Made by a program: the position numbers and the translations under genes. From positions 207,490-271,489 of the forward strand of contig OZ253438.1 in the NCBI GenBank assembly GCA_965261025.1: 64,000 bases of DNA. The letters run 5' to 3'. Under the pieces are notes generated by a model. That model worked only from the letters and a program-made list of their open reading frames with translations. It was not told the DNA's origin and ran no database searches. The stretch comes from Chlamydiales bacterium (GTDB taxonomy: Bacteria > Chlamydiota > Chlamydiia > Chlamydiales > SM23-39). Position 1 is the first letter of the stretch, and each line of letters opens with the position of its first letter. Of this stretch, positions 2,603-45,747 are shown piece after piece.

Positions 2603-4741
2603 ATGACTTTTTTTGCAGAGATAGAAAAAGGGGTAAAAAAACTAGCCTCTCTTTTTCATGATAATCCTCATTCTTTTTTAGGGCTTCAAGAGGAGGGAAA
2701 TAGAAAAAAAATTCATCTTTGGATTCCTGGAGAAAAGCAAGCTTGGATAGAAGTAAAAGGAAAACAAGAGGCTCTTTCTCTAGTCCATAAAGCAGGGTTG
2801 TTCTCGTATGAGTTAAAAGAAGATTTAGGGGCTTTTCATTATCAAATTATCTATCCGAATGGATTAAAGACTTTTGACCCGTACAATTTTCCTCCCTTTT
2901 TTGAAGAGAGAGAGCAAAAGCTTTTCCTGGAGGAAAGTCACCCTTTTTTATATGAGAAGATGGGAGCTTCGATCTTAGAAAAAAATGGGATAGAGGGAAC
3001 TCTTTTTTCGGTTTGGGCGCCTCGGGCGTTGGGGGTATCTGTGGTAGGGGATTTTAACAACTACAACAGTAGACTACACCCTATGAGAAGGCTTTCTCCT
3101 TCAGGAATTTTTGAACTTTTTATTCCCAACGTAGGCGAAGGAGCTTTGTATCAGTTTGAAATTCATAGCTGTAAAGGAGTAACGGTTCGTAAAAATGATC
3201 CTTTTGCTTTTTTTCAGAAGAAACGCCCTCTTTTGACTCCTGTTGTCTATAAACATCAGTTTTTATGGAAAGACCAGCTTTGGATGCAGAGAAGAAAACA
3301 AAAAAAGTATCAAAAAGAACCTATAAATATCTATGAAGTTCACTTAGGATCCTGGGCGCAACAAGAGGGATTTTTAAATTATCGAGATTTGGCTAAGAAG
3401 TTATCTGAGTATGTGAAAGAGATGCACTTCAATTATGTGGAGCTGCTTCCTATTATGGAACATCCCTTAGACGAATCTTGGGGATATCAAATTGTGGGAT
3501 TTTTTGCTCCCACCTCTAGATTTGGTTCTCCTGAGGATTTTCAGTATTTTGTAAATTACCTCCATGAAAGAGATATCGGGGTAATTCTAGATTGGTCTCC
3601 AGCTCATTTTCCCTCTGATAGTTTTGCCTTGGCAAACTTTGATGGTTCCCCCCTTTTTGAATACGAAGATATCCAAAAAAGAAAGCAACCCAAGTGGGAC
3701 ACCTTAGTATTTGACTATCAGAAAAAACAGGTACAAAATTTTTTGATTTCTAGCGTTTTATTTTGGTGTGAGAAGATGCATATAGACGGAATACGGGTAG
3801 ATGCGGTTTCTTCGATGCTTTTTTTAGACTTTTATAAAAAGCCAGGAGAATGGTCTCCAAACATTCATGGAGAAAAGTACAATCTGGAGGCAAAAGCTTT
3901 TTTGCAAAAACTCAACAAGATTGTAAAGGAAAAAATGCCCGATGTTTTGATGATAGCAGAAGAGGGAACTTCTTTTTGTGGAGTAACCACTCCCTTAGAA
4001 GAAGGAGGACTTGGTTTTGCCTTGAAATGGAACTTGGGATGGACCTTTGACACGCTCCTTTATTTTTCCAAGCCCTTACAGAAAAGAAAGAATTTTCAAG
4101 AAAAACTTCTTTTCAAAATGGTATATGACTACAACGAAAAGTTTTTATCTGTTTTATCTCATGATGAAGTGGCTTTAGGGTGTAAAAGCCTCTGGGATAA
4201 AATGCCTGGAGAAGAGATAGAAAAAGTAGCAAATATTCTTCTTTTATACAGCTACTTTATCTGCAGTACAGGTAAAAAACTGAGCTTTATGGGAATAGAA
4301 TTTGCGTATAGAAAAGAGTGGGATGCTTGCCAGGGTCTTCTTTGGGACCTTTTGGAGAAAGAGCCTCACAAGAGAGTGCAAGAAACTTGTAAAGCGTTAA
4401 ACTCTTTTTATCAAAAAAATAGCGCCCTCTGGGAAAAGGACTTTGAGAGAGAAGGTTTTGAATGGGTCTTTCAAGGAAAAGAGCCTGAGGAAGTAATTGC
4501 TTATATTCGAAGGTCTACTTCTCAAGAGCTTTTTATCATTCATCACTTTTCAGATCTTTCTTTACCCAGTTTGTTTTTCCCTATAAGCAAAAAGGTAGAA
4601 CTTCTTGCTAGAGTCAGTGCAAAGGGCTATGAAAAAAGGGGGGATGTAGTGGCAAAAATGGGGTATAATCAGCAAAGAATAAAGGGGCTTGAGATAGCTA
4701 TTTCCCCTTTATCCACCTTGATTTTTGAGGTTTTTCCTTAG
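2603..4741 (+). CDS. glgB: 1,4-alpha-glucan branching enzyme
   Basis: 712 aa with GH13 conserved regions ILDWSPAHF, IDGIRVDAVSSMLF, MIAEEGTSF and LSHDEV. An N-terminal CBM48-like stretch (FSVWAPRALGVSVVGDFNNYN) is present. Confidence 0.9.
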   Translation: MTFFAEIEKGVKKLASLFHDNPHSFLGLQEEGNRKKIHLWIPGEKQAWIEVKGKQEALSLVHKAGLFSYELKEDLGAFHYQIIYPNGLKTFDPYNFPPFFEEREQKLFLEESHPFLYEKMGASILEKNGIEGTLFSVWAPRALGVSVVGDFNNYNSRLHPMRRLSPSGIFELFIPNVGEGALYQFEIHSCKGVTVRKNDPFAFFQKKRPLLTPVVYKHQFLWKDQLWMQRRKQKKYQKEPINIYEVHLGSWAQQEGFLNYRDLAKKLSEYVKEMHFNYVELLPIMEHPLDESWGYQIVGFFAPTSRFGSPEDFQYFVNYLHERDIGVILDWSPAHFPSDSFALANFDGSPLFEYEDIQKRKQPKWDTLVFDYQKKQVQNFLISSVLFWCEKMHIDGIRVDAVSSMLFLDFYKKPGEWSPNIHGEKYNLEAKAFLQKLNKIVKEKMPDVLMIAEEGTSFCGVTTPLEEGGLGFALKWNLGWTFDTLLYFSKPLQKRKNFQEKLLFKMVYDYNEKFLSVLSHDEVALGCKSLWDKMPGEEIEKVANILLLYSYFICSTGKKLSFMGIEFAYRKEWDACQGLLWDLLEKEPHKRVQETCKALNSFYQKNSALWEKDFEREGFEWVFQGKEPEEVIAYIRRSTSQELFIIHHFSDLSLPSLFFPISKKVELLARVSAKGYEKRGDVVAKMGYNQQRIKGLEIAISPLSTLIFEVFP

Positions 4742-4749
4742 GATATTTT

Positions 4750-6744
4750 ATGCCTTTTAAAGAGATTCGTACAGAAGAAGAATATACACAATTAGTAGAG
4801 GAGATAAAAAAACATAATCGACTCTATTTTGAAGAGAGCAAACCCCTTATTTCTGATTACGAATTTGATCTTCTTTTGAAAAGTTTAGAAGCTTATGAAA
4901 AGAAAAACCCTGATAAGGTTTCTAGTGATTCTCCTTCGCAAAAAATAGGAGAAACAATCTTAAAAGGCTTTATACAAAGACCCCATAAAGCGCCTATGCT
5001 TTCCCTTGCGAATACCTATTCAAAGGAGGAGATTTTCCAGTTTATGGAGAGGGTAAAAAGAGTTTTATCCGTAGAAAAGCTCTTTTTTTGCTGTGAACTA
5101 AAATTAGATGGTATCGCTCTTTCCCTTTCTTATAAAAACGGAAAATTTGTAAGAGCTTTGACCAGGGGAGATGGAAAAGCAGGGGATGATATTACGGAAA
5201 ATGTGAGACAGATAGTCTCTGTACCTAAAGTAGTGGATTGCAAAGAGGATTTGGAGGTGCGAGGAGAAGTTTTTTTAAAATGGGAAACCTTTCATTTTCT
5301 CAATGCTAAAAGAGAAGAACAAGGGCTAGAGCTTTGGGCTAATCCCAGAAATGCAGCAGCGGGTTCTTTAAAGCTTTTAGATACGAAAGAGGTAAAAAGA
5401 AGAAAGCTAGAGATAGCTTGCTATTCTTTAGTAGAAGGAGAGAAGTGGGTAAAAGGTCAGCATGAAATCTCTTCTTTTTTGCGAAAGAAAGGGTTTCCTG
5501 TTTTGGAAAAAAAGTTTTTTCAAAGAGCCTCTTCTTTGGAAGAGATTTTTTCTTTCATAGAAAGAGTAGAAAAAGAGAGAAGTACTCTTGCCTTTCAAAT
5601 AGATGGAATCGTTATTAAGGTAGATGACCTTTCTTTCCATAAAAAATTAGGTGCCACAGGAAAATTTCCGAGATTTGCTGTAGCCTACAAGTATGCTCCT
5701 GAGCAAATAGAGACAGTAATCGAAGATATTACAGTACAGGTGGGAAGAACAGGGGTTTTAACCCCTGTTGCAGAGCTAAAACCTGTTCCTTTAGCAGGAA
5801 GTGTGATAAAAAGGGCTACTTTACATAATGTAGAAGAAGTAGAGAGAAAAGACATCCGCATCCAAGATACAGTCCTTCTAGAAAAAGGAGGAGATGTAAT
5901 TCCTAAGGTGATCAAGGTACTTTTAGAAAAGAGAAAAAAGGGAGTCAAAAAGTGGCTTTTTCCTAAAAGATGTCCCATATGTCACAGCGATGTGACCAGA
6001 GAAGAAGGAGAAGTAGCTATTCGCTGCTCTAATAAAAAATGTGGAGGACAAAAGCTAAAAAAAATCATCTTTTTTGCCTCCAAAAAAGGACTGGATATTG
6101 AACATTTGGGAGAAAAAGTAATTACAAGACTTTTTGATCTTGGTATGGTAAGAAGATTCTCTGATATTTTTCTTTTAAATGAATCAGGGCTTTCTCAGCT
6201 GGAGGGATTTAAGGAAAAATCGATCCATAACCTTTTATCCAGCATAGAGAAAGCTAAAACAACGACCTTACCCAGATTTCTTTCTGCTTTAGGGATCTCT
6301 TATGTTGGAGAAGAAACAGCAGAAGTTTTAGCCTCTTTGGGTTCTTTAGAAAAGCTTAGCCAAGCAACTGTAGAGCAGCTACAAGAGTTAGAAGGAATAG
6401 GGGAAAAGGTAGCCCATGCTGTTGCGCTCTTTTTTCAAGAAGAAGAAAACCAGAAGGAAATAAAGCTTCTTTTAGAGCAGGGTATCCTTTTTTCCAAAAT
6501 CTCCTCCCAAAAAGAAGAACATCTTTTTTCAGGAAAAACCTTTGTCCTAACAGGGACTCTATCAGGATATTCTAGGGAAGAAGCCTCTTCTTTGATTAGA
6601 GAAAGAGGGGGAAAAATTAGTAGTTCTGTAAGTAATAAGACCGACTATTTGCTCTTAGGAGAAAATCCCGGGTCGAAATACCAAAAAGCTAAAAAACTCT
6701 CCACTACTATCCTTTCGGAAGAGCAGTTTATTTCATTACTTTAG
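4750..6744 (+). CDS. ligA: NAD-dependent DNA ligase
   Basis: 664 aa. Has the adenylation motif CELKLDGIALSL (KxDG), a four-Cys zinc finger (CPICHSDV...RCSNKKCGG), an HhH region and a C-terminal BRCT (GKTFVLTGTL). Confidence 0.95.
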   Translation: MPFKEIRTEEEYTQLVEEIKKHNRLYFEESKPLISDYEFDLLLKSLEAYEKKNPDKVSSDSPSQKIGETILKGFIQRPHKAPMLSLANTYSKEEIFQFMERVKRVLSVEKLFFCCELKLDGIALSLSYKNGKFVRALTRGDGKAGDDITENVRQIVSVPKVVDCKEDLEVRGEVFLKWETFHFLNAKREEQGLELWANPRNAAAGSLKLLDTKEVKRRKLEIACYSLVEGEKWVKGQHEISSFLRKKGFPVLEKKFFQRASSLEEIFSFIERVEKERSTLAFQIDGIVIKVDDLSFHKKLGATGKFPRFAVAYKYAPEQIETVIEDITVQVGRTGVLTPVAELKPVPLAGSVIKRATLHNVEEVERKDIRIQDTVLLEKGGDVIPKVIKVLLEKRKKGVKKWLFPKRCPICHSDVTREEGEVAIRCSNKKCGGQKLKKIIFFASKKGLDIEHLGEKVITRLFDLGMVRRFSDIFLLNESGLSQLEGFKEKSIHNLLSSIEKAKTTTLPRFLSALGISYVGEETAEVLASLGSLEKLSQATVEQLQELEGIGEKVAHAVALFFQEEENQKEIKLLLEQGILFSKISSQKEEHLFSGKTFVLTGTLSGYSREEASSLIRERGGKISSSVSNKTDYLLLGENPGSKYQKAKKLSTTILSEEQFISLL

Positions 6745-7260
6745 GTGGAAGATTTCATGACACCAATCATACCACATCCCACTGCTGTTTCCTGCATCTC
6801 CGGTTGGTTGAGAGATACAATCATCTGCTTTTTGATGGACAATCACAGCTTTTCTCAAAAGTGCTGTATCTGCTTTGCAAGGACAGGTTTTTCAAGGTGT
6901 TCTCCTATTTGGCATATCCTCTCTTATTGGTTACCAAATTTCCCCCATTGCGTGCGTTGCGATCTTTAGTATAGAGGCGCCCCTATTTTTTGTGAGTGGG
7001 GTTGAAATGACCTCCTGCAGAAAGAGAGATTTGGAGAGCTACAGTCTCCACATTCACGGATAGGAAATCCAGGTTCTCCCGGGCTTAGTCCCTCTATTTC
7101 AGCAGAGACCAAAACTCTGGTATTTTTTCTGGGTAAAGATCCCACCCACTGTTGCTTGACTATTTCAAGGTTCCTTTTCTCTTTTGTAAAAAAGGTTTTC
7201 CCCTTCCATAAAAATCCAGGAATTTTTGAGAAAATCCCTGCTATGACAAAGATCTATCTC
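6735..7260 (-). pseudogene. sodC: Decayed periplasmic Cu/Zn superoxide dismutase gene (multiple frameshifts, stops and ligand substitutions)
   Basis: Minus-strand translation spread over three frames gives TRVLVSAEIEGLSPGEPGFPIRECGDCSS, then AGGHFNPTHKK*, then DRNARNGGNLVTN, then KAVIVHQKADDCISQPTGDAGNS. This follows the SodC pattern (PGxHGFHIHExGxC / AGGHFNP / DRHxGDLGN / VVHxxxDDxxSQPTGNAG). No intact ORF exists, and His ligands are replaced (GFPIRE for GFHIHE). Confidence 0.6.
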
Positions 7261-7491
7261 AATTTTTTCCCTTAACAAAAAGTTTTCCTAAGGTCTTTTT
7301 ACAGAGTGCGGTTTCCCTTTCTAAAAAAGGAATTACTTCTTCTTTTGGGCCTTAACAGGTCTCATGCTCAATCTAAGCAGAGTGGGAAGAAGATTTTTCC
7401 TTTTTACTCCTCTTATATCATAACCGCATCTCATTTTGTTTAATTACAAACTCTAAACTAGCAAATCTTTTGTTATTTTGACTGCTTAGGG

Positions 7492-10170
7492 TTACAAGGC
7501 CTCATCGTCTCCAATTTCCCGGTTTACAGTGTTTAAAAATGTCCTTTCTTTTATTGGTAAGCGCTTCCCTTTTTGAAGAAGATCGTAGGCTTGTTCTATA
7601 AGAGATTTTCCATCAGATTGTTCTAGGTCATAGACGGACTTTAAAAGAGAAGTGATGTGGCATCTTAGGATTGTTATTTTGTTCTGCAGTTGGGATATAT
7701 CAAGGCCTTCTATTCTGCCTTTGAGGCTGTGAAGTTGAACAATAGCAGAGAAAAGATGTATCGCTGAGGGATTTTGCTTTTTGGCTATAGCTTGCTCAGG
7801 GAGTAAATCTGAAGAAGTAAATTGCTTAATTACTTCGGTAGAAGTAGAAAAAGTCTCTTGAGAAATAGAAAAACCAAATAAGCGCTCATATTTGAAAGGG
7901 TTAAGACTTATTGCAATGTGGGTGATTTTTCTCCTCTCTTGCTCTAAGTCCCTCAGATAGTTTTCCCCTTCAAATAAGATTTCTATATAGTTCTGTATTT
8001 CTTCTTCAGTAGAATCTTTACTAAGAGAAGGCATGTTGAACTTTTTGTCGATAGATCGGTATTGTAAAGTCATTTTGTTACAGGTTTGCTTTACCTGCGG
8101 AAATCCCTGGTCTTCCTCTTTCTGGATTCGAAAGATTTCTTGCATTTTTAGGAGATCTTGAACTCCTTGTTGAGCAATTTGCTCCTCTTGAAGACGGAAA
8201 TTTTGAGCTTCTGTTTGGTCTGAAATTAACGCATTAAGCCTATCTAGTTCTTGTTGAAAAGAATCTGAATCTAAAAGTTTGAGAAGATAATTTTTTTCTT
8301 CCCTTACGCTAAGAAGGAAGGCTTGATGATAATTTTCTGGAGTAAGGTATTTAAATAGCCAGTCTCTTTGGCATCTATAAACTCCTTTAATGAATTCTAC
8401 CCTATCTTCATTGCTTTTTCCTTTAGTAACATGTTTATTCTTTAAATCTGTAAAGCTTGGTGAGCAATGAATAGGCGGCAAGGATTGGTGGATTGCTGTT
8501 GGGTTTTTAAAAATTTCTTCTAATTTTTTGACAAACTGTTCTTTACTTAAGAGTTTCGTATGATGGAAGTTTTCATAGGCTCTTATTTCAAAATCTAATA
8601 CTTGTAGCAGAGCGGTATAGTAATTCTCAGGGGATAGATTTAAATTAGACAATATATCTCTGGCTTTTTTAAAGGTCTCTTTGATGTCTTGAAAAATTTC
8701 AGGCTTCTCCTTTTCGGAAAATCCCGTTTCAAGCTCCTCTAATAAGGACATGTACTGATTTGATAATGCCATCGATTCTTTAAGAAACTGGAGTAAATAT
8801 TTGAGAAATTTCTGATTTGCATCTGGACTGCTCCCGAGAAATATCAAACCCGTTTCTTTTGAGGTCCTTGATATAGGATTTATATTGGAATGAAACATTT
8901 TTTCTTTTTCCTTTTTTCCCTCTTCAAAACACCTAGCTACTTCTTCCTTACTGGGGAACTCTCTTTTAATTCTAGTAAGTTCTTGATTATAACTTTCTTG
9001 TGGCAGGGTTTCTTGAAGTAGTCTTTTCTCTCTATTTAAAATCCCAACAAGTTTTGAGTAATCCTCGAGGGTCTTAACAGGTTTTGATTTTAAAGGCTCT
9101 TTTGCTCTTTCAAAAGTTGTCTGTATTTCTCTCAGGCTAGGATATCTCGAAGAGATAATCTGAGATTGAGAATCATAGTCAGCTTCAGATAGAAATTGCC
9201 TTAATAAATTCAGTCTGATTTTTAGAACCTCCACTAAATGCTCTAAGCAACCTATGGTTTTATCTTCTTGGTTTTTTAAGGAGTCTTCTACCGTTTTAAA
9301 ATTTTTTTCTATTTCCTCCATTATTCGTATTTTTTCTTGGGAAAATGCCCTTTTATCTAGGAATCGTTTGGATAGAGCATATTCATCTAGCAGAACTACT
9401 TGGAATCCTTGGATGTATTCTATTCCTTCCGTGGTAGCTTGTAGGATAATCTTTTGTAATCTAAAATGATCGATTAGATCGGATGCTTTTTGTTTGTCCG
9501 AAATATTCTGGTTTTTTATTGTATTTTTTCTTTCTTCAAGGTTGTTAAAAAGGGACGAAAAAGACCTTTTTTCTAGAAATAGAAATTTTTGAAATAGGCC
9601 TTTTATAAAAAATTCTTCTTCAAGGAATTTTTCACTTATTGCACGCTGTTCGGCTACATTAGAAATTTCCTTTGTCTTTTCTTCTTTTTTATCAGAAAAA
9701 GCTCTTCCTAACTGGTTCAGAATATCTTGTTGCAGATCTTTGGAAAGCGCGCTCTCTTGATATGTTGCAAGTGTAAAAAACTCCTCTACTAAGAGATCTA
9801 ATATTTGTTGAAAGAGTAAAATTCTTTCCGTTTTGTTTTTTTTTACCTTTACTAAACTGCGTAGAAAGTCAGCGGTTACTATAAAATGCGCCTTTAGTTT
9901 TTCTGCTCTATGATCGGGGGTATTTTTTAGTACAAAGAGTTTTTCTTTTCGAAGAATTATCCATTCAGATAGTGATGGACCTATTTCTTCTTGTGCCATT
10001 CTATTAAGTAGTGCTGCAGTCATTAGAGGTTCTTTTGGGCTTAGTCGTTCATAACGCTTAAAAATTTCCTGCACAAAGTCAATTAAATGTCGAGGTGAAG
10101 GTTGTGATGGTTTTGAGGAAGATGAGGTACTAAATTCCGTAATATTATTAGTTGGTCCGACAGCTGTCAT
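7492..10170 (-). CDS. Large hypothetical protein, alpha-helical with internal repeats; no recognisable domain
   Basis: Uninterrupted 892-aa ORF with a Ser/Thr/Pro-rich N-terminus (MTAVGPTNNITEFSTSSSSKPSQPSP). E/K/L/Q-rich throughout, with recurring modules (LSPENYYTALLQVLDFEI, LTPENYHQAFLLSVREE, LPQESYNQELTRIKREF). Confidence 0.6.
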   Translation of the reverse strand: MTAVGPTNNITEFSTSSSSKPSQPSPRHLIDFVQEIFKRYERLSPKEPLMTAALLNRMAQEEIGPSLSEWIILRKEKLFVLKNTPDHRAEKLKAHFIVTADFLRSLVKVKKNKTERILLFQQILDLLVEEFFTLATYQESALSKDLQQDILNQLGRAFSDKKEEKTKEISNVAEQRAISEKFLEEEFFIKGLFQKFLFLEKRSFSSLFNNLEERKNTIKNQNISDKQKASDLIDHFRLQKIILQATTEGIEYIQGFQVVLLDEYALSKRFLDKRAFSQEKIRIMEEIEKNFKTVEDSLKNQEDKTIGCLEHLVEVLKIRLNLLRQFLSEADYDSQSQIISSRYPSLREIQTTFERAKEPLKSKPVKTLEDYSKLVGILNREKRLLQETLPQESYNQELTRIKREFPSKEEVARCFEEGKKEKEKMFHSNINPISRTSKETGLIFLGSSPDANQKFLKYLLQFLKESMALSNQYMSLLEELETGFSEKEKPEIFQDIKETFKKARDILSNLNLSPENYYTALLQVLDFEIRAYENFHHTKLLSKEQFVKKLEEIFKNPTAIHQSLPPIHCSPSFTDLKNKHVTKGKSNEDRVEFIKGVYRCQRDWLFKYLTPENYHQAFLLSVREEKNYLLKLLDSDSFQQELDRLNALISDQTEAQNFRLQEEQIAQQGVQDLLKMQEIFRIQKEEDQGFPQVKQTCNKMTLQYRSIDKKFNMPSLSKDSTEEEIQNYIEILFEGENYLRDLEQERRKITHIAISLNPFKYERLFGFSISQETFSTSTEVIKQFTSSDLLPEQAIAKKQNPSAIHLFSAIVQLHSLKGRIEGLDISQLQNKITILRCHITSLLKSVYDLEQSDGKSLIEQAYDLLQKGKRLPIKERTFLNTVNREIGDDEAL

Positions 10171-10332
10171 ATTCTTATTTCTCCTATTTTTATATTAAAT
10201 TAAACAAAAGCGGGAGAGTTTACCTTGTAAAGGCGTTTTTTTAAAGAAAAACAGAAAAGAGTGTAGGGGCAAAGTAAAAGAGTCCTAATATTTCCTCTTT
10301 TTTGAATAGATAGGTGTTATGAGGAAAGTTTT

Positions 10333-13300
10333 TTAAATAGAGCTCTTTTTGAGGGCTTTGATCTTTTCTCGAAGTAGTTCGAAGCAGCAGTAAATTACAG
10401 GAGTTAGAAAAAGGGTCAGTATTTGAGAGAAGATAAGACCTCCCATAATTACCATCCCTAACGGTCTTCTGGAAACAGCATTAGATCCTCCTATTCCTAG
10501 GGCAATGGGAATGGCTCCCATGAGGGCGGAGAGGCTAGTCATAAAAATAGGACGGAATCGGATTAAGCTAGCTTCTACAATGGCATCATAAGCATTTTTT
10601 CCTTTAGAAAGAGAGAGGTTAGCAAAGTCTACCATCATAATTCCATTTTTCATTACGATCCCAACCAAAAGAAGTACTCCTACAAAAGAGTATAGAGAAA
10701 GAGCTTCCCCCGTCAGATACAGAGTAGAAAAGCCTCCAAAAGTAGCAGGGAAAAGAGCGCTTAAAACAGTAAGGGGATGAATAAAACTCTCATATAGGAT
10801 ACCTAAAATTACGTAGATCACAAAAACAGTAACCAGAAATAGAAAAGGTAAACTGGCAAAAGAAGACTGAAACACACTTGCGCTACCTTGAGATTTTCCG
10901 AATACTTGTTTAGGTAAAATTTGTGAGGCCTTTTTTTCAATTTTACTCAGGACAGCTCCCAAGGGAACTCCTTCTTTTAAGTTAAAAGAAACCGTAGCTG
11001 CAGGAAGAGCATTTACGTGGTTTACTGTTAAAGGGCCTACCCACTCCCTTACCTTAGTCACTTCTTTCAAAGGAACCATAACCCCTTGCTGATTTTTTAG
11101 ATAAAGAGAGGATAAAACGCTCGGGTCTTTGTAGAAAGAAGGAAGCGTTTCCATGATAACATCATACTGATTGATGGGGGTATTGATGGTAGAGATTTTA
11201 TTATCAGAATAAGCAAGGTTAAAAAGAGTTTGAATATCCTGCGCTGTAAGTCCCAGATCTGAGGCTTTATTTCGTAAAATAGTTATTTCCAACTGCGGCT
11301 GAGAAATTTGTAAATCAGAGGAAACTTGGGTAACACCGTCTATAGAGCTGATAGCTTGCATGAACCGGGGCACTACTTCATAAAGAGTTTTTGCCTCCAA
11401 ACTGGTAAGGGCATATTGGTAAAGACCTTTTAGAGTAATCCCGATTTGTAAGTTAATAGTAGGAAGGGGGGCAAGGTAGGTATCTATACCAGGGATTTCT
11501 CCGGTTTTTTGCATAATTTCACTGATTACAGGGAAGATAGAAGATCTTTGATGAAAGGGCTTCAAAGAGAGAAACAGAAAACCCTGGTTATCTGAGGCAG
11601 TACCTTCTACAGAAGAAACAGAGATACAAGTTTGTACAGCCGGATTTTCTATAATGGTTTTAGCAACTTCCTCTTGATAACTTTTCATAGCATTGGGGGA
11701 AGTTCCATCCCTTGCTTGGGTAAATCCTTGGATAAAACCTTGGTCTTCCACAGGTAGAAAGTCCTTTGGCAGAACAGAAGCTAAGACAAAAGATCCTATA
11801 GCACTAGAAAAACCTATAAACAGTAGAAGGATTTTATGATGTAAAGACCAATGAAGCCCCTTTTCATAAAAATGAGTCATTTTGGAAAAGCAAAAATGGG
11901 CTATTTTTTCCATCTTGGTGGTAGTTTCTTTCTTCGGAATAAAATGGCTACAAAGAAGGGGGGTCAAAGTTAAGGAAATGAATCCAGACATTAAGACAGC
12001 TACGATAATGGTAACAGAAAACTCTTGAAACAGCCTCCCCACAATCCCTGGCATAAAGAACATAGGAATAAATACTGCTGCAAGGCAAAGAGTCATAGAA
12101 AAAATGGTAGTGCTAATTTCTTTAGAGCCCTCTATGCTAGCTAAAGTGGGATCTTTTCCCATCTGAACGTGCCTTACATTGTTTTCTAAAACTACGATTG
12201 CATCATCGACTAAAAATCCAATGGAGAGTGTGAAGGCAAGTAAAGATAAAATATCCAAAGAAAATCCCCCTAAAAAAAGAAAGGGAAGGGTTCCTAAAAG
12301 AGACATAGGGATAGCCACAGAAGGAATAGCGGTATTTACCATTTTCCCTAAAGTGAAATAGATGATTAAAACCACTAAAACAAAGGCTACAAAAACAGTG
12401 AGTTTTACCTCGTCTACCGAATTTTGGATGATATCTGCTTTTTTAAAGAGGGTATTGTATTTCAAAGAAGCTGGTAAAAGCTTCTGGATAGAAGGGAGTG
12501 TTTTTTCTAGACGATTTGTGACCTCTACCGTATTTGAGCCAGGTAGAGTTTGTATAGCGATGACAATACAAGACTCTTTCTTCCCTTTCTGATACAGATT
12601 TAAAGAGAATTTATCATCTTCTAAAGAGTTTAAAGCTTTTCCTATATCGGAGATTTTAACTAACGCTCCTGCCTCTGCTTTTACTGCTAAGCAGTTGTAT
12701 TCTTCTGCATTATAAAGCTGTCCTTCTACATCGATAGTATGCTCTTCTTTAGGTCCGAATAAAGCTCCTGTGGGAAGGTCAACATTTCCTTGTTGAATGG
12801 CTCTTGCTACTTCATTGAGTCCGATATTTTTTGCTGCTAGCTTTTCAGGATCTACCTGAATACGAGCCGCAAAAGGAGATCCATAGGTAATCACCTGAGA
12901 TATCCCTTCTATTGTGCTAAGTCTTTGCCCAATAAAGGTATTTCCATAATCATAGAGTTTTGCCTGATCCATAACAGGAGAGGTAATAGCCATATAAAAG
13001 ATAGGGGTTTGAGCAGGGTTTACTTTTCGATAGTAAGGGTTAAAAGGAAGGTTTTCAGGAAGATTGGGAATGGCTCTACTAATTGCTGCTTCTACATCTA
13101 ACGAAGCCGTATCTAAAGACTTTTCTAAAGAAAATTGAAGAAGCAAAATAGTAGATCCTGTTTTATTTGAAGAGACAATAATACTTAGTCCATCAATCGT
13201 CATGAATTCTTTTTCTAAAGGGGTAGCTACCGTATTAGCCATAGTTTCAGGATTAGCCCCTGGGTAGGAAGCAATTACTTCAATGGTAGGAAATTCTACG

Positions 13301-24048: not shown

Positions 24049-24185
24049 TCTAAACTTTAGATTGTAAGATACAGACTTTTCCTTGACCGGGAGTTTGCTT
24101 GCTTTGCTGTTTTTAAGCTATTGTAGAAAAAACCCTTGCTAGGGTATCTTGTACTTCTCTCTTGCGGGAGATCTCTCTTTGGATT

Positions 24186-24258
24186 GGGGGCTTAGCTTAG
24201 TTGGTAGAGCGTCTGATTTGCATTCAGAAGGTCAGGAGTTCGAATCTCCTAGCCTCCA
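24186..24258 (+). tRNA. tRNA-Ala (anticodon UGC)
   Basis: Cloverleaf folded by hand. The acceptor GGGGGCT/AGCCTCC includes the G3:U70 alanine identity pair. The anticodon loop is TTTGCAT and the T-arm is AGGAG-TTCGAAT-CTCCT. CCA is not encoded. Confidence 0.95.
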
Positions 24259-24264
24259 TTTCTT

Positions 24265-24338
24265 GCGGTTATAGCTCAGCTGGTTAGAGCGCGACACTGA
24301 TAATGTCGAGGTCCCAAGTTCAAGTCTTGGTAACCGCA
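24265..24338 (+). tRNA. tRNA-Ile (anticodon GAU)
   Basis: Acceptor GCGGTTA/TAACCGC, D-arm GCTC-AGCTGGTTAG-AGC, anticodon stem CGACA/TGTCG with loop CTGATAA, and T-arm CCAAG-TTCAAGT-CTTGG. Confidence 0.95.
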
Positions 24339-24465
24339 TACTCTCTTCGAATTTTTCTACAGAAAAGTCTGAAAGGTTTGTTCTATCGTTTTTTCCGTTT
24401 TAGGGGAAAGAGTTTTGTAAAATTCGTTTTATTTGCTACAACAAGAAGAAACAGCAAGAGGTTTT

Positions 24466-39765: not shown

Positions 39766-41676
39766 ATGGAATGCTTGGGAGATTTTATTCTTTTAAAAGA
39801 GCTAGGACAAGGGCCCTTTTCCACTACTTATCTTGCAGAGCAAAGGTTTATCAAAAAGACCTTTGTTTTAAAAGTTTTGGATAAGACACTTTCTGCCGAT
39901 CCTCTGTTTTTAGATCGTTTTGAAAGGCTTATCTCTTCCGTAGCTTCCTTAGAACACCCCTCAATTGTAAAAATACATAATATTTCTTCGCACGAAGGGA
40001 CTTACTTTTTGGTCATGGATCCTTTTGTTGACTCTGTTGGAGAGACGATGAATTTAGATCGTTATTTGGATTTAAAGGGTAAAGTACTTACAGAAGCAGA
40101 GATAGAAAATATCCTTTTACAGATAGCAGGAGCTTTAGATTATGCGCACGCTATTTCTTTTGATGAGGGGTATTTAGCTCATGGAGGGTTGAAACTTTCT
40201 AACTTACTGGTAGCAAAAAAAGAGAAAGAGCTGAGAATTTATCTTTCTGACTTTGGCTTTTCTAGAATCCTTTCTAAGGGACTTTGTCTAGCTAGAAAAT
40301 GTGAAACTTTCTCTCTTGCTTTGCAGGAAAGAAAGGAAGGCTTTAATTCAGAAAGGCACTACCTTTTACATCGCTCTTTTTTGCGTGACTTTCCCTTTTT
40401 GGCTCCAGAGCAAAAAGATTTTGAAGAAGAAGAGATGCCAGATCCTTCTGTGGATGCCTATGCCTTTGGCGTTTTAGCTTATTTTTTACTTACAAAAACC
40501 TTTCCGGAAGGGTGTTTTGATCCAGTTCATTTAGGAAAATTTTCTTATAATCTTTCTTGGGACTTGCTTATCTTTCAGTCTTTGCAAAAAGATCCAAAGA
40601 ACAGACCTACTAACTTAAGCAAAGCTATGGAAAAGATCCGAGGAGAGAAAAAGGCTTCTTATCCTTGGAGTGAAGTGGGTAAAAAAATTGAAGATGCGAT
40701 GCAAATGTCTTTTACCTTCGGGGAGAAGAAAGCAGATAAAGTAGAGGAGATTACGAAAAAAACCCCTCTTACTTTTTATTCATCTTCTCAAGAGTCTAGT
40801 TTGAAACCCCTTTTAAAACCTCAAGAGATTCATAGGCCTCAGTATGAGCCAGATCCGGGAGCTATTTTTCAAAAAGAACTTGCCGTTTCTAGATATCAAC
40901 CTGCCGAGGTTGAAGTAAAAGAGGTAGAACCTCTTTTAACAGAAATGGTTATTATACCCGGAGATACATACTTTCGAGGAAGTAATCACGGGGCAAGGGA
41001 TGAGATGCCAAGACATGCCATTTCTCTATCGAGTTTTGCTCTTGATATACATCCTGTTACCAACGAGCAGTTTGTCCGGTTTTTAAGCGCTATGGGAGGA
41101 GAAAAAGATGGAAACAATAATGATATTATCCGATTGAGAGACTCTCGTATTAAAAGAAGTTCAGGAAAACTCACAATAGAATCAGGTTATGCCAGGCATC
41201 CTGTAGTGGGAGTTACTTGGTATGGGGCTTTTGCCTATGCAAAATGGGTAGGAAAAAGACTTCCTAAGGAAGGAGAATGGGAAGTTGCCTCTTACAGTGG
41301 AAAAAAAGAGGGTATGATTTATCCCACAGGGGAGGACATAGAGAGAACCAAGGCCAATTTTTTCAGTTCAGATACCACAGCGGTAATGAGCTATCCCTGC
41401 AATGAGTATGGTATTTATGACATGGCAGGGAATGTCTATGAGTGGTGTCAAGACTGGTATGCCTATAACTATTATGACACTTCCTTGCAAGAGCCTGAAG
41501 ATCCTCAAGGACCACCTCAGGGGGTTTATAGGGTGCTAAGAGGGGGCTGCTGGAAAAGTCTTAAGGAGGATCTACGCTGTTCCCATAGACATAGAAATAA
41601 TCCTGGTACGGTAAATGGGACATATGGATTTCGCTGTGCAGCTGATGTCACTTCCGCTGGTAAAAATTTCCTCTGA
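39766..41676 (+). CDS. Ser/Thr protein-kinase-like domain fused to a C-terminal FGE-sulfatase (SUMF1) domain
   Basis: 636 aa with G-loop LGQGPFSTTY, VLKVL Lys, YLSDFG (DFG) and FLAPEQ (APE). The catalytic loop reads AHGGLKLSN instead of HRDLKxxN. The C-terminal roughly 250 aa has FGE-type motifs ([33 protein letters not shown]). Confidence 0.85.
   Translation: MECLGDFILLKELGQGPFSTTYLAEQRFIKKTFVLKVLDKTLSADPLFLDRFERLISSVASLEHPSIVKIHNISSHEGTYFLVMDPFVDSVGETMNLDRYLDLKGKVLTEAEIENILLQIAGALDYAHAISFDEGYLAHGGLKLSNLLVAKKEKELRIYLSDFGFSRILSKGLCLARKCETFSLALQERKEGFNSERHYLLHRSFLRDFPFLAPEQKDFEEEEMPDPSVDAYAFGVLAYFLLTKTFPEGCFDPVHLGKFSYNLSWDLLIFQSLQKDPKNRPTNLSKAMEKIRGEKKASYPWSEVGKKIEDAMQMSFTFGEKKADKVEEITKKTPLTFYSSSQESSLKPLLKPQEIHRPQYEPDPGAIFQKELAVSRYQPAEVEVKEVEPLLTEMVIIPGDTYFRGSNHGARDEMPRHAISLSSFALDIHPVTNEQFVRFLSAMGGEKDGNNNDIIRLRDSRIKRSSGKLTIESGYARHPVVGVTWYGAFAYAKWVGKRLPKEGEWEVASYSGKKEGMIYPTGEDIERTKANFFSSDTTAVMSYPCNEYGIYDMAGNVYEWCQDWYAYNYYDTSLQEPEDPQGPPQGVYRVLRGGCWKSLKEDLRCSHRHRNNPGTVNGTYGFRCAADVTSAGKNFL
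41118..41676. repeat. Direct repeat copy 1 (3' 559 bp of the kinase/FGE gene)
   Basis: Aligns with 43365-43923 at a constant offset of 2247 nt. I spotted only four substitutions by eye, plus a 3-nt difference in the last codons. Confidence 0.9.
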
Positions 41677-41809
41677 CGTCTGAGGACTGTTATGCAGTGG
41701 GTTTAATCCCCTTTTTTTGAGCCTCCAAAGCGATGGATTTACGGAGAGAAAAATATTTTCCTTTACCTATTTTGCACAAAATGTCAAATAAAGTCTTGTC
41801 TATTACAAT

Positions 41810-43234
41810 TTACGACTTGTCTAGCAGATGTTTAAAATCAATGATTGCAGAAAAAAAGTCGCTTTCTACTACGGTTTCATCAACTCCATTCACATGAATC
41901 AAAACAGGTCGTATTGATATATTTTTAGGTAGGGTTAAACTACGAATTTTTTGTTTTACCTCATCAACAACACTTCTTGTAAGCTCTTGACTACTAAATT
42001 TAATTTCACACAAATAACACGTTCCGAATTTTGTTTGAATCATGTAATCGATTTGACAACCTGATCGACCTTTAGCTTTACGTTGGAAAAATGGATTGTC
42101 ATTCACAATCTCAGACGGATCAACATTGAGAATATGCTGTATTGCCTTGCGATTGCTGAGTACAAGATTTTCAAATTGCAACCCCATTGCTGATTGCCAT
42201 TGAGGTAACAGCTTTAATCCCTGTCTTGCGATTTTCTTTTTATTTGGCTTGATATATTTCAAATAAAACCTTAAATAATTGTCTTTAAGTCGGTAATGAC
42301 TCAACTTTGAATCTTTCCCTGTTTTAAGATGCCATGTAAAATCTTGAGAAACAAACCCTGCAGTGACTAGATCTTCCATGTATCTAGAGGTCACCCCACT
42401 TTTTTCGACGTTTAAAGCTTTGTAGATATCTTTAAGCTCACACGGACCTTCAGCAAGTCTTTCGACAATTTTTTTGTAAATCGCACTTCTATTTGAAAAC
42501 AAATCTGAAAAAATTCGCTCAAACTCACTAAAAAGAAATCCTTCTTTTCGAAAGCACAGTTTTTGAATATTATCCTCTGCGCTTTGATTGGGTATGATTT
42601 CTTCAAGATAGCGAGGAACTCCGCCAATGACTGAAAGAACCTTTAGTTTATCAAAAGCGGATACCCTTTTCTCTTCTGCTTTCCAAAATTTGTTACATTC
42701 ATAAAGCGGAAGTTCTTCTAAAACAATGTCTAAAGAAATTCTTCCCAAAAAACCTGTGCTGCTAAGAATGTTTTCTTCTATCCAACTTGAAATTGATCCG
42801 CACAATATGAGAATCAGCTGAGGGTTATTCTTAAAATAGAGATCCCAAGCTGTTTTAAGCTTTCCTAAAAACGTAGGATCTTTTGAACCCATCCAACTGA
42901 TTTCATCTAAAACAAGAACGATTTTTCCTTTTTGAGCATGTTGTGCTAGATGCCAAAATAAATCTCCCCAGTCATCAGCCCTCGGAAGAGGGATTTTCAT
43001 TTCACGTTGTAATTGTCGAGCAAATTCCTCTCTTTGATCGGCAGCTGAAATGTTATTGGTGGGAGGAAACCCAGAAAATACATAGTGAGGTATTTTGCTA
43101 GCAAATTCTTGAGTTAAACGACTCTTTCCGATACGTCGTCTACCCCGAATAACAACAAGGCTCGACGCTTTTTTCTTAAAAAGCTCCTGTAACATCTGAA
43201 GCTCTCTTTTACGTCCCACAAACGTATGCAGCAT
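41810..43234 (-). CDS. AAA+ ATPase (archaeal-ATPase/DUF234-type ATP-binding protein)
   Basis: 474 aa with N-terminal FVGRKRELQML, Walker A GRRRIGKSRL and Walker B IVLVLDEISW. A C-terminal DUF234-like region is present (CQIDYMIQTKFGTCYLCEIKF). Confidence 0.85.
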   Translation of the reverse strand: MLHTFVGRKRELQMLQELFKKKASSLVVIRGRRRIGKSRLTQEFASKIPHYVFSGFPPTNNISAADQREEFARQLQREMKIPLPRADDWGDLFWHLAQHAQKGKIVLVLDEISWMGSKDPTFLGKLKTAWDLYFKNNPQLILILCGSISSWIEENILSSTGFLGRISLDIVLEELPLYECNKFWKAEEKRVSAFDKLKVLSVIGGVPRYLEEIIPNQSAEDNIQKLCFRKEGFLFSEFERIFSDLFSNRSAIYKKIVERLAEGPCELKDIYKALNVEKSGVTSRYMEDLVTAGFVSQDFTWHLKTGKDSKLSHYRLKDNYLRFYLKYIKPNKKKIARQGLKLLPQWQSAMGLQFENLVLSNRKAIQHILNVDPSEIVNDNPFFQRKAKGRSGCQIDYMIQTKFGTCYLCEIKFSSQELTRSVVDEVKQKIRSLTLPKNISIRPVLIHVNGVDETVVESDFFSAIIDFKHLLDKS

Positions 43235-43337
43235 ATTTTTTTATCCTGTATTTTGGTGATGAATTTATCATAGCAAAAACACATCACAAAATCAATGTTT
43301 TTTGTTTTAGTGATGTACAAAAATCAAGGGTTATGCT

Positions 43338-43361
43338 AAAAAAGAGGCTGCTTTAGCAGCC
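43338..43361 (-). terminator. Rho-independent-terminator-like hairpin upstream of the ATPase gene
   Basis: The minus strand reads GGCTGC-TAAA-GCAGCC followed by TCTTTTTT. It sits exactly at the inner edge of repeat copy 2. Confidence 0.5.
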
Positions 43362-43364
43362 CCC

Positions 43365-43923
43365 TAATGATATTATCCGACTGAGAGACTCTCGTATTAA
43401 AAGAAATTCAGGAAAACTCACAATAGAATCGGGTTATGCCAGGCATCCTGTAGTGGGAGTTACTTGGTATGGGGCTTTTGCCTATGCAAAATGGGTAGGA
43501 AAAAGACTTCCTAAGGAAGGAGAATGGGAAGTTGCCTCTTACAGTGGAAAAAAAGAGGGTATGATTTATCCCACAGGGGAGGACATAGAGAGAACCAAGG
43601 CCAATTTTTTCAGTTCAGATACCACAGCGGTAATGAGCTATCCCTGCAATGAGTATGGTATTTATGACATGGCAGGGAATGTCTATGAGTGGTGTCAAGA
43701 CTGGTATGCCTATAACTATTATGACACTTCCTTGCAAGAGCCTGAAGATCCTCAAGGACCACCTCAGGGGGTTTATAGGGTGCTAAGAGGGGGCTGCTGG
43801 AAAAGTCTTAAGGAGGATCTACGCTGTTCCCATAGACATAGAAATAATCCTGGTACGGTAAATGGGACATATGGATTTCGCTGCGCAGCTGATGTCACTT
43901 CCGCTGGTAAAAATTTTTCCTGA
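43365..43923. repeat. Direct repeat copy 2
   Basis: Near-identical to 41118-41676. The differing positions are cgaTtgagag/cgaCtgagag, agaaGttca/agaaAttca, gaatcAggt/gaatcGggt and cgctgTgca/cgctgCgca, and the terminal codons encode NFL* versus NFS*. Confidence 0.9.
43365..43923 (+). pseudogene. 5'-truncated duplicate of the FGE-sulfatase domain (no kinase domain, no proper start)
   Basis: The in-frame region opens after a TAG at 43354-43356. The only start candidate is an internal GTG at 43453. The encoded 155 aa are identical to the kinase C-terminus except the last residue. Confidence 0.75.
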
Positions 43924-44214
43924 CATCTAGAGAGAAAGATTAAGTAGATAATTAGAGGGGATTCTAGGGCTTTCTTCATTGAGGAGCTTCTCCTAAAGGC
44001 CTAAGAGAAGGATCTCTTGGGTTTGCTCGTTGGTTTGTATCGATGTTTTTACTTTAGACTTTGGATTTTAAGGGGGAAGGAGCCCCGCTTTAATGAATTG
44101 CTATCTGAAATCCAAGAGAATTTTCAATGACTTTTTATCCACTCTTGGGTGGAGGTTTTCTCTTGAAAGAGTAGGGTCATTCGTAGAGAATTAGAGGTAT
44201 TTGCGGTAACCTAA

Positions 44215-44793
44215 ATGAAGGATTTTTTTTTACGATCTGAAGACCATATAGTTAGATCCAAAGATTTCTCCAAGAAATCTTTAGAGTCTCAAAATTTTGA
44301 GGAGTGCTTATTTGAGGGGTGTAACTTCACAGAAGCTCTTTTGAAAAAGGCAAAGTTTAGTTCTTGTCTCTTTAAAAACTGTAATTTTAGTTTAGTGAAG
44401 TTAGATGAATGTCGTATCCAGGATACTCCATTTTTGGAATGCAAAATCGTAGGTGTGGAATTTTTTAAATGTGAAAAGACCTTTTTCTCAACAACTTTTC
44501 GAGGTTGTTTAGTCCAATATTGTAATTTTTCTGATCTTCGGATGAAAAATGCTTCTTTTGCTAGAAGTAAGTTGAAAGAGTGCTACTTTACCAATACATA
44601 TCTAGTGGGATCTGATTTTGAAGAGACAGATTTGATGGGAACCGTTTTTCACAATAGTGATCTTTCCCAATGTGATTTCTCTAAAGCATTGAATTACAAT
44701 ATTGATCCAGTAACTAATAATATTAAAAAAGCGAAATTTTCCCTTCCAGAAGCAGTAGGACTTCTACGTGGTTTTGATATTTCCCTTCTATAG
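44215..44793 (+). CDS. Pentapeptide-repeat protein (Qnr/McbG-like size and architecture)
   Basis: 192 aa made almost entirely of tandem A(D/N)LXX-type pentapeptides (FEECLFEGCNFTEALLKKAKFSSCLFKNCNFSLVKLDECRI...). Confidence 0.85.
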   Translation: MKDFFLRSEDHIVRSKDFSKKSLESQNFEECLFEGCNFTEALLKKAKFSSCLFKNCNFSLVKLDECRIQDTPFLECKIVGVEFFKCEKTFFSTTFRGCLVQYCNFSDLRMKNASFARSKLKECYFTNTYLVGSDFEETDLMGTVFHNSDLSQCDFSKALNYNIDPVTNNIKKAKFSLPEAVGLLRGFDISLL

Positions 44794-45102: not shown

Positions 45103-45747
45103 TCAATGCACCATTTGTCCACTAAAAATCTGTTGATTTGCAAGATCTGTTTCTATGCTGTAAATCCAGTTATTGAACAGTACTTCCTCTATAAGACAAG
45201 CATGTGTGGCATACCTTTTTCCCAGCTTAAGTTTTTTGATCCCTTCTTGCATTTCATCTAAATGTTCTTCTTCTTCGAGAAGAATCGACTTTACATGTAC
45301 TTTTGATCTATGCTTCCGCAGCACTGCTTCGTAAATGGGATAAAATTTTTGGGCTCGAACTTCTATAGCATAAGTTACTAAAAGATAAGCAATCTTTTTC
45401 ACGGAGCGTTTATCTAGCATGCATTCTTTTATTAGGAAACGAGATATGAAAAGGTCTAATTTATTTAGGTATTGCAAAGTAGTAATTCCGCCAAGAATGG
45501 ACGATGGGCAATAATTAGGAAAAAAGGACAAAGAGACTCTTTTAATTTGCCATTTCAAATAGTGACAGTGGCGAAATTCTTCAGAGGCATGCTTAAGCAT
45601 TTCTTCTTTCACTAAAGTAGGGTGCTCACAGGCAGCTATTTTGCGAGCGCCGCAATTTTCTAAATAAGAAAGGGTATTGAGCCATTTCGCGTGAAGAATA
45701 TCATTTTGGACAATCTTAATGAGAAGAGGAATTAATTTTTTCTCCAT
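45103..45747 (-). CDS. Uncharacterised ferritin-like diiron-carboxylate-motif protein, last gene of the biotin operon
   Basis: 214 aa whose start overlaps the bioA 3' end by 16 nt. Candidate diiron ligands are E30, E57-x-x-H60, E129 and E159-x-x-H162, spaced 27 and 30 residues apart (YLENCGARKIA, ASEEFRH, YAIEVRA, LEEEEHL). Confidence 0.6.
   Translation of the reverse strand: MEKKLIPLLIKIVQNDILHAKWLNTLSYLENCGARKIAACEHPTLVKEEMLKHASEEFRHCHYLKWQIKRVSLSFFPNYCPSSILGGITTLQYLNKLDLFISRFLIKECMLDKRSVKKIAYLLVTYAIEVRAQKFYPIYEAVLRKHRSKVHVKSILLEEEEHLDEMQEGIKKLKLGKRYATHACLIEEVLFNNWIYSIETDLANQQIFSGQMVH

Follow-up and report, generated by a model that had tools for sequence, protein, structure and literature searches.

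The locus described here lies in a 64,000-nt stretch of a Chlamydiales genome (contig OZ253438.1, positions 207,490 to 271,489), referred to as the window. It contains an intact kinase gene, a single-gene ATPase cassette on the opposite strand, and a truncated second copy of the kinase 3′ end. The kinase gene (39766..41676, + strand) encodes a Pkn1-like Ser/Thr kinase of 636 aa with a C-terminal FGE-sulfatase domain (Pfam Pkinase, 9.8e-23; FGE-sulfatase, 2.8e-59). Its last 559 nt form copy A of a direct repeat. The ATPase gene (41810..43234, − strand) is the sole gene between copy A and copy A′, and A′ is joined on its right to a region with a pentapeptide-repeat gene and a bio operon. The arrangement is referred to as A-B-A′, with B the inserted DNA, and loci from other genomes are designated by L numbers.

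The direct repeat and the ATPase gene between its copies

In an exact fixed-offset comparison and a repeat search of the 64-kb window, in which repeats of at least 35 nt were considered, positions 41118-41676 match 43365-43923 at a fixed offset of 2247. A sequence-only reading of the window had already described a near-identical 559-bp repeat at this offset, with four substitutions and altered last codons, and both observations hold under exact alignment. Over the 559 nt, seven positions are mismatched in total (A/A′): T/C at 41134 (synonymous), G/A at 41159 (Ser to Asn), A/G at 41184 (synonymous), T/C at 41637 (synonymous), and CCT/TTC at 41670-41672, which turns the protein end from NFL-stop to NFS-stop. 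Weak identity (TGAC.TCT) continues past the stop codon up to 41681/43928. On the fixed-offset identity map, copy A (41118..41681, + strand) comprises the 3′ end of the functional kinase gene and 5 nt beyond the stop, and copy A′ (43365..43928, + strand) is a start-less 3′ fragment of the kinase, a pseudogene. The left edge of A′ is sharp at 43364/43365, and the sequences following A and A′ diverge a few bases past the stop codon. Because the other repeat families in the window reach only 35-60 nt at 63-78% identity, this repeat, the only long one in 64 kb, is far beyond chance. Copy A′ lacks an ATG and comes directly after an in-frame TAG, which identifies it as a truncated 3′ fragment; a 156-aa open reading frame (ORF) begins at a GTG within the domain. 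By tblastn, A′ is 99.5% identical to kinase residues 452-635.

The five difference events between A and A′ all lie at most 67 nt from the left edge or at most 40 nt from the right edge, on either side of a perfect interior of 452 nt (p about 0.0015 for such a gap). This clustering suggests gene conversion that seldom reaches the repeat ends, or error-prone synthesis beside the joints. It favours homogenisation or junction-associated errors over simple youth of the repeat, and the earlier description of the copies as recent or homogenised by gene conversion is reasonable on this pattern. The left-edge mismatches (41134, 41159 and 41184) are spaced exactly 25 nt apart, which may be chance. Polarising the substitutions with the nearest orthologue (L001, 80% nucleotide identity) gave a mixed outcome. 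The copies are long and similar enough for recombination between them to drop the cassette and restore a single intact kinase gene, as had been proposed.

Copies that are 99% identical, in a metagenome or symbiont-type assembly, might also arise as an artefact, through the chaining of strain variants of the kinase downstream region or mis-resolution of a repeat. The copies are distinguishable, the contig measures 1,422,118 bp, which implies long reads or a clean assembly, and some molecule must contain the joint at 43364/43365, which connects the hairpin described below with the middle part of the FGE domain. An analogous architecture at another locus has in addition been assembled independently twice (L166 and L167). 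With these points set against it, an assembly artefact is hardly credible.

The gene between the copies encodes a 474-aa STAND/ORC-like AAA+ ATPase with a C-terminal PD-(D/E)xK-like motif, an assignment drawn from Pfam, PADLOC and an AlphaFold2 (AF2) model compared by Foldseek. The Pfam matches are ATPase_2 (1.2e-12), AAA_22 and AAA_16. An earlier label of AAA+/DUF234 ATPase is therefore retained in its AAA+ part and dropped in its DUF234 part, for which Pfam gives no hit. PADLOC assigns the protein to PDC-S27 (PDLC04984, E = 5e-88), with residues 4-465 aligned to profile positions 3-467 of 474. The ATPase is a candidate single-gene phage-defence protein of the PDC-S27 type, and a defence function is what we infer for it. 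In the literature PDC-S27 is still a candidate defence system without experimental validation (PMC12988326).

In an alignment of 28 homologues, the Walker A motif GRRRIGKS (G31, G36, K37) and the Walker B residues D110 and E111 are invariant. Towards the C-terminal, D396 and E410 are invariant and K412 is nearly so, forming a D..ExK motif; a putative C-terminal nuclease activity is read from this PD-(D/E)xK-like motif itself. The AF2 model, generated from the 28 homologues, has a predicted local distance difference test score (pLDDT) of 90.8, and its top Foldseek matches are 2fna and 2qen (probability 1.00), NLR NB-ARC and ORC/Cdc6. In the model, the first ~370 residues resemble the archaeal AAA+ ATPases SSO1545 and PAB2304, the plant NLR NB-ARC and ORC/Cdc6. 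The protein thus combines Walker A and B motifs with an AAA+ fold that is followed by helical and winged-helix domains, the arrangement that defines a STAND-like ATPase. On viral contigs, members of the family are found at 53% identity only, and none is close.

Cassette limits and contexts in other chlamydiae

The B unit (41810-43364, 1.55 kb) contains a terminator hairpin, a promoter with palindromic half-sites, and the ATPase gene. The cassette 5′ region (43235..43337, − strand) holds a sigma-70-like promoter, predicted by promoter scan, with a -35 element TTGATT at 43295-43290 and a TG-extended -10 element TATGAT at 43272-43267. These elements are set among ATCAC-type palindromic half-sites at 43316-43310, 43287-43281 and 43262-43255, and the region is kept with the cassette in L081-L083, L120, L165, L166 and L168. 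The half-site set of the window (43255-43316) reads ACATCAC/GTGATGT/TCATCACC. Every member of the ATPase family that was examined has its own distinct set of palindromic or repeated half-sites at the promoter, located elsewhere at L112 1760-1805, L121 2580-2680, L134 5850-5930 and L138 5890-5975; such member-specific half-sites suggest possible autoregulation or a co-evolving operator.

Beyond the promoter lies a terminator-like hairpin (43338..43364, − strand), composed of GGGGGCTGC-TAAA-GCAGCCTC followed by a T run, with 10 pairs, -16 kcal/mol and z = -2.4. The minus strand after the hairpin is TCTTTTTT, and the element reads as a putative minus-strand terminator just upstream of the ATPase promoter. 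In the window it forms the outermost part of the cassette and abuts A′. It is conserved in L120, L165 and L168, and the homology of the window with these three loci stops at 43363/43364. The sequence-only reading had noted a hairpin at the repeat edge; its fold energy bears this out, and the hairpin belongs to the cassette, where it reads as a minus-strand 5′ terminator. At the opposite end, a filler of 128 nt (41682..41809) separates the stop region of the kinase gene from the stop codon of the ATPase gene. This filler is outside the unit common to L165, L168, L103 and L169 and has no match elsewhere in the window or among the loci compared (through L170). A search of 41000-44400 against Rfam returned nothing at gathering score.

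In composition the cassette does not stand out. Its GC content is 0.359 against 0.370 for the window, its GC at third codon positions is 0.286 against 0.304 ± 0.025, and its codon-usage distance falls within the range of host genes; the compositional comparison that had been suggested earlier thus reveals no anomaly of the cassette relative to its host. In the window there is no compositional foreignness, which becomes evident only in other hosts. A near-identical unit (94-98% at the DNA level) is present in at least five other chlamydial contexts. Its identity to the window unit (41810-43363/4) is 97.7% in L168, 96.7% in L165, 95.6% in L166, 93.8% in L169 and about 97% in the partial contigs L120 and L103. 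Besides the unit, these loci (L168, L165, L166/L167, L169/L170, L120 and L103) share nothing, and in the comparison of host relatedness the Pfam families common to them are paralogues at 21-30% identity.

ATPase homologues at 83-97% protein identity are abundant and lie in unrelated contexts: beside serS/DUF1653 (L081), in an efflux operon (L082), beside E2/isocitrate dehydrogenase (L083), among hypothetical genes (L165), beside NfeD/Band_7 (L166 and L167), among insertion sequence (IS) remnants and a frameshifted tyrosine recombinase (L168), and beside outer-membrane and LptE genes (L169 and L170). In a collection of 15 billion proteins clustered at 90% identity, the ATPase cluster has 50 members from many samples. 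The host flanks range from 34.5 to 44% GC, with the unit steady at about 36%. A near-identical unit of constant GC in hosts of differing GC indicates that the cassette is horizontally mobile and moves between compositionally different chlamydiae.

The two ends of the cassette behave differently. Upstream of the hairpin, L168, L165 and L120 share at least 162 nt more, and a divergent 53-aa ORF is found there in L120 and apparently in L165; in L168 its start reads ATT, not ATG. In the window the cut falls precisely at the base of the hairpin (43364), in L166 it falls 64 nt past the hairpin, and in L169 and L170 it lies inside the unit, at 43327. Because these cut points vary along a longer conserved upstream region, the 5′ ends represent truncation at arbitrary points and do not mark the termini of an element. 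Upstream, the breakpoints scatter across more than 250 nt. On the 3′ side, by contrast, five independent contexts have their breakpoints at -4, 0, +2 and +10 nt from the ATPase stop (window 41808-41814; L103, L165, L166, L168 and L169). This clustering might reflect later trimming of flanks in compact genomes, or a polar mechanism. At the window joint, microhomology amounts to at most 1 nt (judged against L168 and the kinase); at the L166 joint there is none. In L103, a partial second cassette 5′ region (1298-1443; hairpin and half operator, 80-83% identity) lies 283 nt after the ATPase with no ATPase following, and is a remnant of a tandem or truncated cassette.

Clustering of the 3′ breakpoints at the stop codon is also what a tyrosine recombinase acting in trans could produce through site-specific integration of an element that carries a gene-completing copy of the target 3′ end, in the manner of e14 and phage 21 at icd in E. 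coli. Two further observations point the same way: the L168 cassette lies near the frameshifted tyrosine recombinase and IS remnants, and integrase homologues are found 1-3 kb from the ATPase in L087, L088 and L107. No integrase is present in or near the window unit, however, and tblastn of the L168 integrase against the window gave no match. The 5′ ends differ in every context, no core is shared at the ends across contexts, and the target genes are different (the kinase in the window, Band_7 in L166). Elements borne by integrases have short cores and diverged gene-completing arms, unlike 559 nt at 99% identity, and a recombinase supplied in trans is considered very unlikely. In L168 itself, a DDE_Tnp_1 transposase, a Transposase_mut fragment and the frameshifted tyrosine recombinase flank the ATPase (5763-7242 and 9460-10517), and the recombinase gene lies 279 nt downstream of the cassette.

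Other classes of element were considered and rejected. The window A-B-A′ unit lacks a recombinase, inverted repeats and a short duplication of its target, and ORFs, Pfam and the repeat search agree with the earlier statement that transposase, integrase and terminal inverted repeats are missing from it. An IS or transposon is excluded by the lack of a transposase ORF in 41118-43923 and of inverted repeats at the ends, by duplications of 559 and ~850 nt, and by the variable 5′ ends. An integron cassette does not fit a unit with its hairpin at the 5′ end and its own promoter, with neither a 3′ palindrome/attC nor IntI. An integrase-borne island or prophage would require a window integrase and an att core common to the ends; neither was found, and an integrase pseudogene adjoins the cassette only in L168. 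The FGE/C-type-lectin fold is the classic variable-protein fold of diversity-generating retroelements, but here the mismatches show no restriction to adenines on either strand, a reverse transcriptase is missing, and the ATPase is the sole gene between the copies. Retroposition by target-primed reverse transcription, considered because it might account for the fixed 3′ and variable 5′ ends, is set aside as well: the unit holds a promoter, an upstream terminator and sometimes part of a divergent gene, which would be absent from an ATPase mRNA.

Target duplications elsewhere and variation downstream of the kinase

A second A-B-A′ structure is found in L166 and L167, from two different Joint Genome Institute (JGI) metagenomes, where an intact Band_7 gene and a 74-aa fragment of Band_7 flank the same cassette. 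In L166 the repeat consists of three blocks: 403 nt at 96% identity (9021-9421 / 11708-12108), 24 nt at about 96% (9603-9626 / 12106-12129) and 170 nt at 95% (9700-9868 / 12130-12299). The original duplication measured about 850 nt and comprised the 3′ end of Band_7 together with the 3′ end of a convergent ankyrin gene. The right copy carries two internal deletions, frameshifts, a nonsense codon, and six non-synonymous against four synonymous changes; the deletions, frameshifts and nonsense codon mark this A′ as a decaying pseudogene. Both flanking genes are intact. A filler, here of 216 nt, again comes after the ATPase stop. The L166 fillers have no match among the loci compared, and the repeats, like those of the window, have frayed edges around a cleaner interior. 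The L166 duplication is older and decaying, and shows that A-B-A′ structures can persist long enough to decay.

More distant members of the ATPase family (53-59% identity) are also bracketed by target-derived repeats: in L121 by 210 nt that take in the 5′ end of the gene downstream, in L134 by 58 nt of the 3′ end of the upstream gene, and in L112 by at least 121 nt of terminator and intergenic DNA. Of 37 ATPase genes, 5 are bracketed by direct repeats, compared with 3 of 161 genes of matched size from chlamydial control loci (p = 0.006); without L085 and L138 the count falls to 3 of 37 (p = 0.08). The repeats of these two loci were rejected as target duplications, as they are multi-copy elements resembling miniature inverted-repeat transposable elements (MITEs) or repetitive extragenic palindromes (REPs). 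In L085, a MITE-like element of ~140 nt with terminal inverted repeats (GAGGCAATTGCAAAACTC) occurs in three copies within 8 kb (3735-3872, 7315-7451 and 8024-8079). In L138, a GC-rich repeat of 116 nt with nested hairpins, 96% identical between its copies (5756-5871 and 7576-7691), flanks a distant ATPase homologue; it looks like a REP-like or small RNA element.

The kinase has orthologues in about 80 Chlamydiota loci, mainly metagenome-assembled genomes (MAGs) of Parachlamydiales, Simkaniaceae and Rhabdochlamydiaceae, and is a core chlamydial gene. In most of these loci the upstream genes, encoding RNase HIII and a RodZ-like helix-turn-helix protein, are syntenic. Downstream, no gene is conserved among the about 80 loci, and the ATPase, the pentapeptide-repeat gene and the bio operon are present in 0 of 80, with flanks of up to 10 kb considered. 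In the collection of 15 billion proteins, the kinase cluster at 90% identity has one member; the other best matches are at 87% (L001), 77% and 74% (L177), followed by matches at 65% or less, and a genome scan for the kinase locus found no relative closer than L001. The protein cluster of the A′ fragment is made up of distant kinase fragments. In another chlamydial MAG (L014), a 106-nt direct repeat at 76% identity (4849-4954 and 7024-7124) brackets the whole kinase gene.

In the nearest relatives, L001 and L177, the kinase locus is without the cassette. The ispH gene directly follows the kinase in L177 and lies 6.5 kb downstream in L001, where the interval is taken up by a tandem array of about five paralogous ORFs (~110 aa each) and by two genes of ~600 aa. 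In the window, the DNA downstream of the kinase (41677-64000) holds the cassette, a bioB-F-D-A operon and the pentapeptide-repeat gene, and ispH is missing from these 22 kb. The DNA following the kinase (L001 11989-14332; L177 11988-12911; window 41677-64000) is a hot spot for variation. This variability is the ground for a multi-step origin, consisting of a plain insertion, a tandem duplication of the kinase 3′ end with the cassette, and a deletion, or a larger rearrangement at this breakpoint, that removes the second cassette copy and leaves A′. The downstream DNA is a synteny breakpoint across Chlamydiota, the ispH of L177 and L001 is gone, and the partial second cassette 5′ region of L103 indicates that local duplications and truncations do occur near the ATPase. 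Such a sequence would require at least three events with end points exactly at the cassette edge and the kinase stop codon, and identical coincidences again in L166; moreover, the sequences after A and A′ part within a few bases of the stop. A multi-step origin is considered improbable.

Farther along the window, a 214-aa ORF (45103-45747, − strand) shares 16 nt with the 3′ end of bioA and matches nothing in Pfam or NCBIfam. Its motifs EEFRHCHY and EEEEHLDE (E..H) recall a di-iron protein, and the gene may belong to the biotin operon without having been recognised as such. At 24185-24339, tRNA-Ala(TGC) and tRNA-Ile(GAT) lie 4 nt apart, a pair typical of rRNA spacers.

Origin of the structure and comparison with known systems

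With slightly better than even confidence, the structure of the window is attributed to a recombinase-independent insertion of the foreign cassette coupled to a long target duplication, just downstream of the core kinase. In this mechanism, a horizontally transferred single-gene cassette and the 128-nt filler would integrate immediately after the kinase, with no recombinase, through illegitimate end-joining (at staggered or sister-chromatid breaks), template switching, or one-sided-homology capture. The same event would duplicate the last ~560 bp of the kinase gene. Copy A would keep the kinase intact, and A′ would persist as a dead 3′ fragment still attached to the genes downstream. Either gene conversion would keep the interiors of A and A′ identical or the event would be very recent, with the edges diverged. 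The repeats would make the cassette losable by RecA-type recombination, and the excised circle could in principle re-enter a conspecific chromosome via a single crossover. One coupled event is preferred over separate steps because the insert lies exactly at the joint of A and A′ in two independent loci.

In Campbell-type integration, as proposed by the sequence-only reading, a circle with the ATPase gene and the kinase 3′ region would enter the kinase by one homologous crossover and thereby duplicate the homology. The circle would come from a conspecific donor or from excision at an existing A-B-A′ locus. The geometry fits: A joins the 5′ part of the kinase and completes its ORF, the start-less A′ runs into the downstream pentapeptide/bio region, and 43364/43365 could be the joint of circle closure. 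A homology of 559 nt at 99% identity is ample for recombination, and four of the six substitutions are synonymous (p about 0.06 for the four outside the last codons), as for two functional alleles. The route requires a conspecific donor in which the cassette already lies beside the kinase, and would thus explain spread but not arrival. Donors of near-identical cassettes differ in GC and have no close kinase. Between conspecifics, exchange by double crossover, with no duplication left behind, would be expected more often, yet duplication is found at two independent loci among a handful of near-identical cassette contexts (94-98% DNA identity). The earlier proposal is accordingly kept for the A-B-A′ geometry and for later spread, and set aside for the first arrival, where the circle would need a 99%-identical kinase end; as the origin of the structure it is rather unlikely, with some weight of its own.

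Several observations weigh against the coupled insertion and duplication. The kinase 3′ end is also a synteny breakpoint, because the window lacks the ispH of L177 and L001, and the present arrangement may be the product of more than a single rearrangement. The collections hold one genome of the species, and a search for conspecific strains or an empty-site allele found none. The synonymous excess, in tiny numbers, hints weakly at allelic differences between functional kinases slightly more than at pseudogene decay. After curation, the enrichment of bracketing repeats over controls is only suggestive, and most contexts (L165, L168, L169, L081-L083 and others) have no long target duplication. 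The clustering of 3′ breakpoints is left unexplained by random illegitimate recombination, save through later trimming of the flanks. Finally, joints this blunt speak against template switching of the classical, microhomology-mediated kind.

The cassette might itself be a minimal (semi-)autonomous element, using its own ATPase-nuclease or polar copying from the stop codon to variable 5′ points, a possibility rated as distinctly improbable. If true, self-insertion at widely staggered breaks would yield duplications that preserve the target gene, of 559 bp in the window, ~850 bp in L166 and 58-210 bp in distant members. To our knowledge, no bacterial element makes target duplications of such size.

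Chlamydiae carry few classical mobile elements. Under the preferred reading of a coupled insertion and duplication, the locus would illustrate how a self-contained foreign candidate immunity gene can enter a chlamydial chromosome with no transposase or integrase and with a core gene spared. For obligate intracellular bacteria, a scar made twice at different genes is a concrete and testable footprint of gene acquisition without a recombinase. Through the direct repeats, the gene could be readily lost, or in principle passed between close relatives as a circle that re-enters by core-gene homology. With its mismatches clustered at the edges, the repeat is a small natural experiment in how gene conversion acts on a gene and its dead counterpart.

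The ATPase has counterparts among known systems. It resembles STAND/NLR-like ATPases with nuclease effectors in its AAA+/ORC-like fold, winged-helix region and D..ExK motif, and PDC-S27 in being a single-gene system with a patchy, horizontally transferred distribution; for chlamydiae, no phage or target is known. The insertion itself is compared with four systems. Campbell insertion-duplication likewise gives an A-B-A′ product, with direct repeats around the insert and one intact and one truncated copy, and is reversible. It differs in that no circular donor with a kinase fragment is known, the cassette comes from unrelated hosts without a matching kinase, and its 5′ end is arbitrary.

Homology-facilitated illegitimate recombination (HFIR) has been worked out in Acinetobacter, Pseudomonas stutzeri and Streptococcus pneumoniae; most of its events remove DNA from the recipient, and the microhomologies involved span a few nucleotides. 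HFIR operates in natural transformation and brings in foreign DNA with no dedicated recombinase (PMC3240628). The likeness lies in one homologous and one illegitimate joint, with no inverted repeats or short target duplication. In the window and L166, by contrast, a stretch of 0.56-0.85 kb of the recipient is duplicated, microhomology at the joints is 0-1 nt, and the homologous anchor would again need a conspecific donor. In S. pneumoniae, transformation triggers merodiploidy, with tandem duplications of 100-900 kb bordered by IS repeats that arise through unequal crossing-over between chromatids (PMC3784515). This process is alike in that DNA uptake and recombination produce a duplication in which one gene copy stays intact (PMC3784515); the window differs in the size of its duplication (0.56 kb), in the foreign insert at the joint, and in the lack of a pre-existing repeat.

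The elements e14 and phage 21 insert in the 3′ end of icd in Escherichia coli; their integration is integrase-mediated and involves a short identical core and a diverged, phage-borne replacement end. As in the window, an intact target end lies on one side of the element and a displaced 3′ fragment on the other, whereas the window has no integrase and its repeat is 99% identical over 559 nt. In conclusion, an insertion flanked by a duplicated piece of its target is a known kind of footprint, from Campbell integration and from e14 and phage 21 at icd. Its cargo and setting are new: a PDC-S27-type STAND-like ATPase that moves among environmental chlamydiae as a minimal promoter-plus-gene unit, the lack of a recombinase of its own, and target duplications of 0.56-0.85 kb at two different genes.

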